Assembly: GCA_000004695.1 (NCBI GenBank)
Contig: CM000152.2
Coordinates: forward strand, 5,760,001 to 5,824,000
Reading direction: 5' to 3'
DNA length: 64,000 nt
Source of the DNA: Dictyostelium discoideum
Taxonomy: Eukaryota
Numbering within the stretch: position 1 is the stretch's first letter; every line of letters begins with the position of its first letter. Below, one piece after another: positions 9,470-23,871 of the stretch. Below the pieces are notes generated by a model that was not told the DNA's origin, did not search any database, and worked only from the letters and a program-made list of their open reading frames with translations. The translations under genes and the position numbers were made by a program.

Positions 9470-9837
9470 ACATACACATATGTCGCAACCTCCTCCACAA
9501 CCACCTTCAAGGTCATACATCATTCTAATATCGGAATTTTCAGAAACTTTAAAGTTTGATAATTTCTTTTTGTCATACTTTGTTGTTAATTTCTTTTTGT
9601 CCATTTCAATCTAAAAAAAAAAAAAAAAAAAAAAGAAAAAAAAATTTTAATTAGTATAATTATTGATTAAAATTATTTTTAATATTTAATAAAATATAAT
9701 ACAATTTGGTTATGAATTGGAGTTCCGGTTTTATCAAAAATTAGGCTCTTGAGGTCATGGATTGATGTTTTTTCTGGATTTAAATCAAACTCTACGGTTT
9801 GATTTTCATTATTTGGTAAATGGCAATTAACTTTCAT
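9357..9837 (-). CDS. Ubiquitin-like GG / Cys-rich / CaaX protein (copy C), 3 exons: 9703..9837, 9476..9610, 9357..9392; 101 aa
   Basis: Product: MKVNCHLPNNENQTVEFDLNPEKTSIHDLKSLIFDKTGTPIHNQI|IEMDKKKLTTKYDKKKLSNFKVSENSDIRMMYDLEGGCGGGCDIC|GLGGGCHCVVQ*. Donors are GTATTA and GTATGT and both introns are phase 0. It ends in C-V-V-Q, a CaaX box. Confidence 0.6.
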
Positions 9838-12774: not shown

Positions 12775-13377
12775 TTTTTATTTATATATTTATATGTACA
12801 AAGAATTTCTTTATATATATATATATATAATAAAATATAATTTTATTATAAAATTGATGAATTTTAATAAATATATTGATAATGATATTGATAGTGATAT
12901 TGATAATGATATTGATAAATTAAGGTATTATTATTATTTATAATTAATCTATTAGTATACTGTATGAATTTTGAGTTTTTCTGAATAAACTGCTACTATG
13001 GTATAAAATGATAATTAATAATAATAAAATTTAATAAAAACCTACCTAATATAGAATTTAAAAAAAAAAAAAAAAATACAAAATATTTGTGTTATTATTA
13101 TTATAATTTAGAAAAAAAAAAAAAGTTATACAAAAAATTGGTTTGATCAATATTTTTCGTTTCAAAAAAAAAAAAAATTTAAAAAAAAAAAATAAAAAAT
13201 AAAAAAAAAAAAAATAAAAATAAAAAATGTGAAAATAAAAAAAAAATAAAAAATAAAAAATTTCATATGAAATTCTGTCTTTGTCGTTTTTGGAAATAAA
13301 CAAAAAATTGTAAAATGATTTTTAATTTTTTTTCTAAACACTTTTTTTTTTTTTTTCCATATAAAAAGCTCTAAATA

Positions 13378-21208: not shown

Positions 21209-21538
21209 TAAAAATGATAAATAAATGTAAAGTTCATTGTTACTTTACGAATTTCAGTTTTATGAAAACTGAAAATAAAAAAAAATAAAAAATATAAACA
21301 ATTTTTCGTTTTTCACTTCCAATCTAAATAAAACATTCTTATTATCTATTTTTGGATTACTAACATATTTAATTATATAATTACTTTATTATTATTGTAC
21401 TTTACAGTTGTAATTTTTTTATATAAGATGACTTGAGATGAGTAACTGGAGTGTCTAATTTTAGGAATTTTAAAAAAAAAAATCAAATAATTTTTGTTCG
21501 ATTGATGTTGAATTATCATAAATTGATTTAATTCAACA

Positions 21539-21549
21539 GGAATCGAACC
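21539..21549 (-). promoter_or_regulatory. External B-box (exB, GGTTCGATTCC) about 31 to 41 nt downstream of the tRNA-Ser 3' end
   Basis: The minus strand reads …ACAGGTTCGATTCCTGT…. This is a second copy of the pol III B-box consensus outside the tRNA body. D. discoideum tRNA genes are known to carry an ex-B box 20 to 40 bp downstream. Confidence 0.55.
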
Positions 21550-21579
21550 TGTGATACAGGTTTTAATGCACTAAAAATT

Positions 21580-21660
21580 CGACACCTGCAGGGTTCGAAC
21601 CTGCGCCTCCGAAGAGAACGCCTTAGCAGGGCGCCGCATTAACCACTTTGCTAAGGTGTC
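21580..21660 (-). tRNA. tRNA-Ser (anticodon GCU), class II with long variable arm, 81 nt
   Basis: Minus-strand read: GACACCT-TA-GCA-AAGTGGTTAA-TGC-G-GCGCC-CTGCTAA-GGCGT-TCTCTTCGGAGGC-GCAGG-TTCGAAC-CCTGC-AGGTGTC-G. The acceptor stem pairs 7/7. The anticodon loop CU-GCU-AA gives anticodon GCU. The T-loop is TTCGAAC and the variable arm is CUC/GAG. Confidence 0.85.
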
Positions 21661-21699
21661 ATTGAAAACCAAATGGGTTATACACTTTGCTAAGGAGTT

Positions 21700-21983
21700 A
21701 TCGAAACAAAACAACAACAATCTCTTTTTTTGACTATCTCAAGGAGAAGCAAATAATAATTGCGTTATCCAATTCAAAAAAAAAAAATCTCTTTTTTTGA
21801 TTATTTCATTTTTCATATAAAAAGACTTAAAAAACAAATAAATAAATAAATAAACTATTTTAAAAAGCCATATTTTTACTTTATTGTAATTTATTATTTG
21901 TTTTGTTTTGAAAAAAGAAAAAGATAATCAAAAACAACAACAACAATCTCTTTTTTGATTGTTTCATTTTTCATATAAAAAGA

Positions 21984-22017
<34 letters not shown>

Positions 22018-22445
22018 GGGAACCAATTTAATCAGAAAATTTCCAGATTTTTAACTTTTTAAAGTAAAATAAAAAAATAGAAAGAAAATAAGATGAAAAT
22101 TACAATCAACACCACAAATATTAAGCAACACAAATGCCTACAAAAAATAAGTGAAATTGTGGATAAAACTCAAATAAAAAAAACAATTCAAATATGTCAT
22201 CAAAATCAATCATGAAACTGATGATAAAATAAAAAAAGATTTAGAAAAAAGTTTTGACAAAAAAGATGTTTTAATCAAAAGTAATAATACAATTCAAAAT
22301 TTGAACCTAAAAAAAAAAAAAAAAAAAAAATAAAAATGCAAACTAACCCCTCTTTTAGAGACCCTGTAAAAAACTACAAATAAAATGAGATCTAGCATCT
22401 CAAGGAGAAGCAACTAATAATTGCGTTATCAAATCCAAAAAAAAA
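21700..22445. repeat. Two dispersed short repeat families upstream of the tRNA-Ser gene
   Basis: R1 is CTCAAGGAGAAGCAA[AC]TAATAATTGCGTTATC[CA]AAT[TC]CAAAAAAA at about 21742..21790 and 22398..22445. R2 is CAATCTCTTTTTTGA[TC]T[AG]T[CT]TC (ATTTTTCATATAAAAAGACTTAAAAAA) at about 21714..21740, 21788..21840 and 21945..22000. Confidence 0.6.
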
Positions 22446-22845
22446 AGTGTCATCGAAAACCAAATGGGTAATACACTTTGTTAAGGTGTCATTGAAAACC
22501 AAATGGATAATAACTTTCTTAAGGTGTCATCGAAAACCAAATGGATAATACACTTTGTTAAGGTGTCATTGAAAACCAAATGGGTGATACACTTTGCTAA
22601 GGTGTCTTTGAAAACCAAATGGGTAATACACTTTGTTAAGGTGTATCGAAAACCAAATGGGTGATACACTTTGCTAAGGTGTCATTGAAAATTATTTGAG
22701 TGATACACTTTGCTAAGGTGTCATTAATAATTATTTGGGTGATACACTTTGCTAAAGTGTCATTAAAAACTATTTGAGTGATACACTTTGCTAAGGTGAT
22801 ACACTTTTCTAAGGTGTCATTGAGAACTATTTATGAAAATTTTAA
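22441..22845. repeat. Tandem satellite of about 39 bp x about 10 copies, derived from the 5' end of the tRNA-Ser gene plus its upstream flank
   Basis: Unit GTGTCATTGAAAACCAAATGGGT[GA]ATACACTTTGCTAAG. It contains CTTTGCTAAGGTGTC, which is the reverse complement of the tRNA 5' end GACACCTTAGCAAAG. The same unit occurs once at the true tRNA 5' flank (21641..21700). Later copies are progressively degenerate (…AATTATTTGAGTGATACACTTTGCTAAGGTG…). Confidence 0.8.
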
Positions 22846-23164
22846 AGTTCACCTAATTTTTGGCCGGTCTTTAAAAAAATTCATATTGATATTCAATAAA
22901 CCATTCGATTGGGTTATTTACACCCAATCATATTGTATTTTTAGAATATTCATATGCCATAAAAAATAAAAATATGATAATATCCTCTAAAGTAATACTC
23001 TGCAAACTCGATTTCGAAAAAATAATAAAATGATGTGTTATCTGAAATTTTTGTTTAATCATTTTATCTTATTTCCAAAAAAAAAGAATAAAAAATGATA
23101 AAATTAAAAAAAAGTAAAATGATAAAAATATTAAAAAAAAACAGATTTTATAAATTTAAATCTG

Positions 23165-23195
<31 letters not shown>

Positions 23196-23277
23196 GTTTT
23201 AGGAGTGCCTCTATTTATCAATACCAAATCAATATTAAAAATAAATAAAATTTTATTATTTTAATTTTTAGTTGAAA

Positions 23278-23871
23278 CTAATAACAATTTTCAATTAACC
23301 ATTCAATTCCTTTATTTATACCTAATCCTGTTGCACTACTTGAATATTCAATATGCCATTTTTTATTGTATTTATTATCGTCATTTGATAATTCTAATAG
23401 TATTTCCAATTCTGAAATTGTTATAGGATTATCACGATTAAGTTCATAATAAGTGTGTCTTTGATCTTCCTTAAACAAAAATTCTTTATCATACTTATTT
23501 AAATAAATTAAAATTGGAATTTGTTTTAAATCAATTTGATCATTTAATAGTTTTAAAATTTCAAATTTAACTTCATCAATTTTTTCTCTATCTAAACAAT
23601 TAACTACAAATATTATTGCCGATATTTCTTTATAATAATATTTCCATAAATTATTATTTATTGAACAACCACCTTTAACATCGAATATAGTAAAAGTTGC
23701 ACCATTTAATTCAATATCTTCATAATTAAACCCAATTGTTGGTATGGTTTTTTGAATTTTATTAGTTTTCATTTTATATAACATTGTAGTTTTACCACTA
23801 TCATCAATTCCAATCATTAATATTTTTTTACCAATTTTACAATTTGTTAGTTTAAATATTAAATTTCCCAT
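23278..23871 (-). CDS. ARF-like small GTPase (Arl family), 197 aa, single exon
   Basis: MGN… has an N-terminal Gly for myristoylation. The P-loop is GIDDSGKTTMLYK, followed by a DVKGG switch-II variant, an NKYD (NKxD) motif and SSA (SAK-like). The overall Arf-family layout is present. Confidence 0.7.
   Translation of the reverse strand: MGNLIFKLTNCKIGKKILMIGIDDSGKTTMLYKMKTNKIQKTIPTIGFNYEDIELNGATFTIFDVKGGCSINNNLWKYYYKEISAIIFVVNCLDREKIDEVKFEILKLLNDQIDLKQIPILIYLNKYDKEFLFKEDQRHTYYELNRDNPITISELEILLELSNDDNKYNKKWHIEYSSSATGLGINKGIEWLIENCY

Follow-up and report, generated by a model that had tools for sequence, protein, structure and literature searches.

Background

Minisatellites (VNTRs) are head-to-tail repeats of a unit of 10-100 bp, with variable copy numbers, truncated units, higher-order repeats and homogeneity within a lineage. 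Animal mitochondrial control regions contain tandem duplications of a tRNA fragment with adjacent non-coding DNA, which are attributed to slipped-strand mispairing. Repeats next to tRNA genes are also found in another amoebozoan genus. The STRs linked to tRNA genes in Entamoeba histolytica and Entamoeba dispar are strain-polymorphic, have retroelements nearby and lie between whole tRNA genes, which are arrayed in 0.5-1.8 kb units. They have been explained by concerted evolution together with slippage where replication pauses in a pol III-dependent manner (PMC2652664).

The vicinity of tRNA genes in Dictyostelium is also the target of the non-LTR retrotransposon TRE5-A (DRE). Its layout is AB-ORF1/ORF2-BC, with an A-module of about 200 bp, a B-module of 290 bp and a C-module of 134 bp (PMC3159450), and its 5' end always faces the tRNA gene (PMC5391098, PMC3159450). 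Of 1,003 integrations, 80.2% were at 47+/-3 bp, within a reported range of 23-181; both the assembly of the complex and the targeting of TRE5-A depend mainly on the B box (PMC5391098).

Here we describe a locus of Dictyostelium discoideum in which a 39-bp array is built from the 5' end of a tRNA-Ser(GCU) gene and its flank, and is interrupted by a TRE5-A element. The analysed stretch of 64,000 nucleotides (the window; GC about 20%) is from a strain of the AX4 type, as the Arf-related protein encoded next to the array is identical to AX4 XP_640060.1. The interrupting block is the known TRE5-A, and the likeness to this element covers the block, not the array; the array itself is a minisatellite with an unusual seed. 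It resembles minisatellites in all the features listed above, but it has a functional pol III gene at one of its ends, part of every unit copies a constrained sequence, and different duplications occurred at the same gene boundary in different strains. Its units are tRNA-fragment units as in the mitochondrial repeats, which differ in being organellar, with another replication context and neither a pol III promoter nor retrotransposon targeting. It shares the tRNA-adjacent position, the strain polymorphism and the nearby retroelements with the Entamoeba repeats, whereas its units carry a 17-nt fragment from the 5' end of one gene and not whole tRNA genes in tandem. No description of the array was found in the searchable literature, and full-text searches with the unit, tRNA and flanking-repeat sequences gave nothing relevant.

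Results

The tRNA-Ser(GCU) gene and the array derived from its 5' end

The features of the locus are summarized in Table 1. ARAGORN and Rfam placed the ends of the tRNA-Ser(GCU) gene at 21579/80 and 21660/61, and it is the only intact tRNA gene that either program found in the window; it was also the sole Rfam match at a permissive threshold between 20000 and 24500. About 30-40 bp downstream of the gene is the sequence CAGGAATCGAACCTG, which we take to be an external B box ('ex-B'), as it resembles the one typical of Dictyostelium tRNA genes. Equivalents of this B-box-like sequence were seen downstream of the tRNA-Ser copies of other strains.

Table 1. Features of the tRNA-Ser(GCU) locus (window coordinates unless stated otherwise)
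Feature	Position	Strand	Basis or remark
Putative external B box (ex-B)	21537..21551	-	GTTCGATTC at 21540-21548; B-box consensus search and repeat D10 with the tRNA T-arm
tRNA-Ser(GCU) gene	21580..21660	-	ARAGORN; Rfam RF00005, 61.1 bits, E=6e-12
tRNA-proximal array part	21644..21707	+	unit 1 at 21644-21682, partial unit 2 at 21683-21707
TRE5-A retrotransposon, ORF-less, 5' end toward tRNA	21708..22446	+	homology to full elements
TRE5-A A-module	21708-21925		interrupted
Nested second insertion	21734..21787	+	last ~40 nt of TRE5-A C-module and A12
TRE5-A partial second A-module	21926-21987		
TRE5-A A-run	21988-22015		
TRE5-A B-module	22016-22305		290 bp
TRE5-A C-module with A-runs	22306-22446		
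Distal array block	22447..22832	+	starts with GTGTCATCGAAAAC (22447-22460), proposed right target-site duplication
Inverted half-tRNA copies of ACTFIZ	L004 ~9670-9715 and 12855-12900		

The first-pass annotation of the window had reported about ten tandem 39-bp units, and TRF detected them at 22447-22798 (period 39, 9.1 copies, 89% matches, score 466). The array reaches about 22832 once a truncated 18-nt unit and the last unit are counted, so that this distal block comprises ten to eleven units. Each unit consists of nt 1-17 of tRNA-Ser(GCU) and 22 nt of the 5' flank of the gene. The tRNA 5' end had thus been recognized correctly, but the copied part is 17 nt long and not 15 nt as first reported: CACTTTGCTAAGGTGTC is the reverse complement of tRNA nt 1-17 (17/17), in register and contiguous with the gene. 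The remainder of the unit had been assigned to the immediate 5' flank, and the 22-mer adjoining the tRNA (21661-21682) is indeed identical at 21 of 22 positions. A chance similarity limited to a 15-mer, which had been named as a possible refutation, does not agree with this extended match. At up to three mismatches CACTTTGCTAAGGTGTC occurs 12 times against 0.04 expected, always at the array locus, and the flank 22-mer has 7 matches against 0 expected.

The array also has a part at the gene itself, which had gone unnoticed. About 1.6 units run out of the tRNA in register (21644-21707, repeat families D2/D3), and the first 17 of the 39 nt of unit 1 (21644-21660) are at the same time nt 1-17 of the tRNA. 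The AX4 type has about 12 units. The two blocks stand 739 bp apart, and the array is now about 790 bp from the tRNA, in agreement with the earlier estimate of about 800 bp; the distance is owing to TRE5-A.

Six units of the distal block, up to 22666, are of one type (W1, ...GAAAACCAAATGGGTGATA), and those from 22667 on are of another (W2, ...AAAAYTATTTGRGTGATA). The truncated unit lies at 22784-22801, and the last unit merges into the ancestral flank. The degeneration toward one end that had been described is therefore at the end far from the tRNA, with the second sub-type and the truncated unit. W1 and W2 (compared at 22568-22589 and 22684-22705) differ mainly in CCAAATGG versus TTATTTGR. Since reverse complementing CCATTTGG yields CCAAATGG, a micro-inversion in a W2-like unit may have given rise to W1, which would then have spread through the array and to the tRNA-proximal copy. 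Two ORFs across the array, of 62 and 63 aa (22481-22669 on the minus strand and 22778-22969 on the plus strand), are periodic read-throughs of the repeat and not credible genes.

The same structure is found in the independent chromosome-level assembly GCA_054883475.1: between the tRNA and the end of the array it departs from the window at only three substitutions, which lie beside an A-run inside the intervening TRE5-A. The array is thus not an assembly artefact.

We also searched the region for pol III promoter elements. The B-box consensus search found no B box in the array; the two matches in the region are the B box of the tRNA itself and the downstream ex-B. An A box with one mismatch is present in 6 of 12 units. 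The units contain tRNA nt 1-17 only and do not have the pair of internal A and B boxes, able to recruit TFIIIC, that defines a SINE-like element or a tRNA pseudogene array. The suggestion that the array could titrate pol III factors is therefore unsupported.

The TRE5-A element between the two array blocks

A check for TRE5 fragments near the array had been proposed, and it revealed an ORF-less TRE5-A of 739 bp with the layout A(1.4x)-B-C-(A)10. The identification rests on two loci with fuller elements. The sequence directly 3' of ORF2 (1047 aa, RVT_1) in L002 shares 88% identity with window 21973-22446 over 490 bp, and the 5' B-module, which lies just before ORF1 (444 aa) and runs into it, shares 93% with window 21987-22301. 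L007 provides a contiguous alignment to window 21777-22301 (86% over 582 bp) that runs through an A-module, a partial A-module, the B-module and the start of ORF1; each of its 199-bp A-modules begins with a match to window 21704-21741. A block 'X' (21708-21836 and 21926-21987) had been considered as a separate poly(A) retroelement or the 3' end of an ORF2; the L002 comparison ruled this out, and the L007 alignment identified the block as the TRE5-A A-module.

The element thus has the modular untranslated regions of TRE5-A, with A-, B- (exactly 290 bp) and C-modules and a 3' A10. Of the coding regions of the autonomous TRE5-A.1 (ORF1, and ORF2 with endonuclease and reverse transcriptase) it retains only the first ~210 nt of ORF1, inside the B-module; ORF2 is absent. 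The window copy is a non-autonomous, internally deleted derivative, and its A-B-C form is consistent with loss of the ORFs between two B-modules. No published name for this ORF-less form was found in the cited TRE5-A literature.

A three-frame translation of 22018-22335 contained no long ORF. A peptide stitched across frames from 22094-22310 was used as bait for genomic copies of the repeat, and its matches were solely short 'hypothetical proteins' of D. discoideum, which are gene calls on repeat copies. Among them (P0001-P0006), DDB_G0282561, DDB_G0280833 and ACTFIT_004637 are calls of 80-123 aa on TRE5-A B-modules that correspond to the ORF1 start remnant (window 22093-22301); these 'hypothetical proteins' are probably not genes.

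TRE5-A elements are usually described with one or two A-modules; the copy at 4511-6194 of L007 (GCA_054883475.1) is far above this number, with 8.5 tandem 199-bp A-modules (99% identity, TRF score 3333). L002 (1-8357) contains two TRE5-A elements in direct tandem, and the second opens with an A-run and a B-module right after the ORF2 stop of the first, with no C- or A-module between them, an arrangement that suggests recombination between B-modules.

The window element starts 47 nt from tRNA +1 (21660) and stands head-to-head with the gene, the position and orientation expected of TRE5-A. The proposed target-site duplication of about 13 bp consists of GAGTTATCGAAAC on the left (21695-21707) and GTGTCATCGAAAAC on the right, which differ by two substitutions and one indel. 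The left copy could also be A-module sequence: the 5' end of the A-module itself reads ...GAT(C/A)GAAAAAAC..., and ATCGAAAC at 21700-21707 could belong to the element. The insertion point would then be about 35 nt from the tRNA, with almost no target-site duplication, still within the published range of 23-181 (PMC5391098). Clean duplications flank the ACTFIR copy (14 bp, see below), the L008 reference copy (13 bp) and the nested insertion in the window element (13-14 bp). When the element was removed in silico, either reading of the junction gave one in-phase array starting at 21644 (tRNA nt 17), with period 39, 10.4 copies and a TRF score of 538-554, versus 466 for the native distal block.

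The nested insertion is a C-module tail that matches C-module positions 83-121 at 100%. It is flanked by the duplication (A)TCTCTTTTTTTGA (21720-21733 and 21787-21800) and lies 73 nt upstream of the tRNA, outside 47+/-3 but inside the published range. Such a second copy within the first resembles the published TRE-TRE tandems.

The locus in other strains and species

Orthologous loci of the wild D. discoideum strains ACTFIW (L003) and ACTFIR (L009), of D. cf. discoideum ACTFIZ (L004) and D. citrinum (L005) were retrieved through the Arf-like gene. In ACTFIW, about 12 units run directly into tRNA copy 2 and further units into copy 1 (7 and 12-13 units per tRNA copy), with no TRE5-A between array and gene; a short A-module stub lies inside the copy-1 array. 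In ACTFIR (4 and 5.6 units per copy), 3-4 units abut tRNA copy 1 with no TRE5-A between them. ACTFIR copy 2 has a TRE5-A 47 bp upstream, with the target-site duplication GGTGTCAT[T/A]AAAAT, in the same unit phase as in AX4. Farther out is an older element with a poly(A) tail that joins the remaining array directly, (A)22 being followed by GGTGTCATCG, again in the same unit phase; this is the TRE-TRE tandem pattern described earlier (PMC5391098). The AX4 and ACTFIR insertions are equal in the phase of their 3' junctions and differ at their 5' ends (A-module nt ~12 versus ~112). The in-phase array obtained by excision, together with the unsplit arrays of ACTFIW and ACTFIR, indicates that the AX4 array was once contiguous with the tRNA. 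An AT-rich micro- or minisatellite with TAATGTAATTATTAA... units has also expanded in ACTFIR (L009 13880-14050), within what remains of the A-module of the TRE5-A upstream of copy 2.

ACTFIY has four units and two 62-bp units. ACTFIZ and D. citrinum have two tRNA-Ser genes and no 39-bp array, and homology to the 22-nt half of the unit can be recognised in their proximal flank. The copy number therefore varies from 0 to about 12, as in minisatellites. The Arf-related gene, single in D. discoideum, is tandemly duplicated in D. citrinum (L005 8001-8594 and 8935-9525; 197 and 196 aa).

We also compared the wider region (window 21400-23300 with L003 8600-13200, L009 8600-14300, L010, L004 and L005). 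All other strains and species examined have two tRNA-Ser(GCU) genes in direct orientation, about 3-5 kb apart, with a GH20 (beta-hexosaminidase-like) gene between them. A single tRNA-Ser and no GH20 gene are present in the AX4-type window and in L001, and tblastn detected none anywhere in the 64 kb. This implies a several-kb deletion in the AX4 lineage, whose end points would lie in the tRNA and array repeats, and the joint of the recombination could be at 22667, where the unit type changes sharply.

Unit evolution and breakpoints

The junction between GGGTGATA and CACTTTG is common to all unit types, which suggests a single founding duplication of -22 to +17 and argues for a single origin of the array. 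The flank halves of the units in each strain follow the tRNA flank of that lineage. The identity of the 22-mer is 0.81-0.93 within lineages, about 0.9 for the pairs AX4-ACTFIY and ACTFIW-ACTFIR, and 0.53-0.66 between these pairs (0.58), while single-copy flanks are about 90% identical. Likeness within and divergence between lineages indicate concerted evolution, as in minisatellites. The 17-mer derived from the tRNA has an identity of 0.87 between lineages, the same as within them. Consensus differences number 1/17 in the 17-mer versus 8/22 in the flank, a marginal contrast (p=0.05) with the differences clustered in one block. The constancy of the 17-mer is consistent with conversion from the constrained tRNA at the array edge.

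Signs of slippage are the truncated 18-nt unit, units of 38 nt, the variable copy number and a 133-bp higher-order repeat. The last, in ACTFIW, includes tRNA nt 1-25. The 62-bp unit of ACTFIY holds tRNA nt ~1-28, with GGCCG/GCCGC microhomology at the join. The breakpoints of the duplications inside the tRNA are thus at nt 17 (39-bp unit), nt ~25 (133-bp) and nt ~28 (62-bp). In ACTFIZ, an inverted and degenerate 5' half-tRNA (about the first 44 nt) lies ~190 bp upstream of both tRNA-Ser genes, suggesting joint duplication of gene and upstream region, or later homogenisation. Five unrelated tRNA genes in L008 have no copies of their own 5' ends upstream. Hairpin-driven slippage was considered as a general property and rejected: the W1 units fold no better than shuffled sequences (z +0.5 to +0.8), and palindromic units are of the ACTFIW type only (z -2.4 to -3.2).

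Discussion

The array is probably a minisatellite of the D. discoideum lineage that is anchored in a functional tRNA-Ser(GCU) gene and arose by duplication of the gene boundary, slippage or unequal exchange and concerted evolution, before TRE5-A split it in the AX4 type. In an ancestor of the D. discoideum strains, 39 bp across the 5' boundary of the gene (nt 1-17 and -1 to -22) would have been duplicated in tandem. The array would then have grown and shrunk through replication slippage or unequal exchange, with its units homogenised in each lineage by concerted evolution. In the AX4 type, TRE5-A would have integrated 47 nt upstream of the tRNA, inside unit 2, and shifted the remaining ~10 units away by 739 bp and a ~13-bp target-site duplication; a severely 5'-truncated TRE5-A tail would have entered this first element later. 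Directly seen in the sequences are the anatomy of the array, the identity and geometry of TRE5-A, the contiguity of array and tRNA in other strains and the pattern of concerted evolution. Slippage or a template switch at a pol III-bound replication pause site, by analogy with the Entamoeba repeats, is a plausible mechanism. Replication slippage had been one of the two origins offered in the first-pass annotation, and it fits the variable copies, the truncated unit, the higher-order repeats and the concerted evolution. The other, repeated tRNA-targeted integration or repair involving TRE5, was right in that a TRE5-A is present and explains the distance from the gene; the element interrupts the array and did not build it, its target-site duplications being 13-14 bp.

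The idea that the units are stacked footprints (target-site duplications or abortive integrations) of repeated TRE5 or DGLT-A integration gains something from the occurrence of TRE5-A in or beside the arrays of three strains, always in the same unit phase, and from the integration of DGLT-A at 13-33 bp upstream (PMC5633606), close to which the flank boundary of the unit falls (-22). We nevertheless consider it very unlikely, because the observed target-site duplications are not 39 bp long and, at about -34 to -47, fall beyond the duplicated segment of -22 to +17; no unit is separated from the next by retroelement sequence, and the arrays abut the tRNA in strains without an intervening TRE5-A. 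Moreover, TPRT footprints would not include a copy of 17 nt from the tRNA gene. A chance likeness between the tRNA end and a dispersed repeat or MITE-like family is even less credible. Such a repeat would not be expected to match the gene at 17/17 and 21/22 positions in register and contiguously, nor would its flank half be expected to track the tRNA flank of each lineage. The array-specific junction GGGTGATACACTTTG does not recur in the remainder of the window and is missing from six other loci (the unrelated L002, L007 and L008 and the orthologous array-free L004-L006), the metagenome collection gave 0 matches, and five other tRNA genes show nothing comparable.

Maintenance of the array for a function, as A-box decoys, as an insulator-like pol III site or as a TRE5 landing pad that shields the Arf-like gene, has slightly more in its favour but is still quite improbable. 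The 17-mer that bears the A box is conserved between lineages while the flank half is not, six units keep a one-mismatch A box, and arrays persist in four strains. Against this, gene conversion from the constrained tRNA explains the 17-mer equally well, the contrast between the two halves is marginal as noted above, the array has no B box although this is the major determinant (PMC5391098), and the copy number also differs between paralogous tRNA copies. With no B box, half the A boxes, inconsistent hairpins and 0 to about 12 copies among close relatives, the array is probably a neutral by-product without function.

The minisatellite reading may be extended, more tentatively. The 5' boundary of this actively transcribed tRNA gene could be a recurrent hot spot of template switching or breakage, with at least three duplications that have a breakpoint in the D-arm region and the inverted half-tRNA of ACTFIZ as traces, and the locus a record of pol III fork-barrier rearrangement. 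The arrays would then have driven structural variation, with conversion holding the 17-mer constant; the data are compatible with the arrays having mediated the loss of tRNA copy 1 and the GH20 gene in AX4. We regard this extension as possible but rather doubtful.

Conclusions

The value of these results lies mostly in annotation and natural history, including the exposure of the gene calls on B-modules. Upstream of a tRNA gene, the 39-bp units form a phased 'ruler', and the TRE5 integrations of different strains, which may be independent, share one unit phase on it. The locus is also a rare nuclear case in which a selectively constrained gene end belongs to a tandem array. The array is usable as a strain-typing marker. 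If the reading of recurrent breakpoints were true, the locus would be a natural system for studying the instability of pol III genes in a genetically tractable amoeba.
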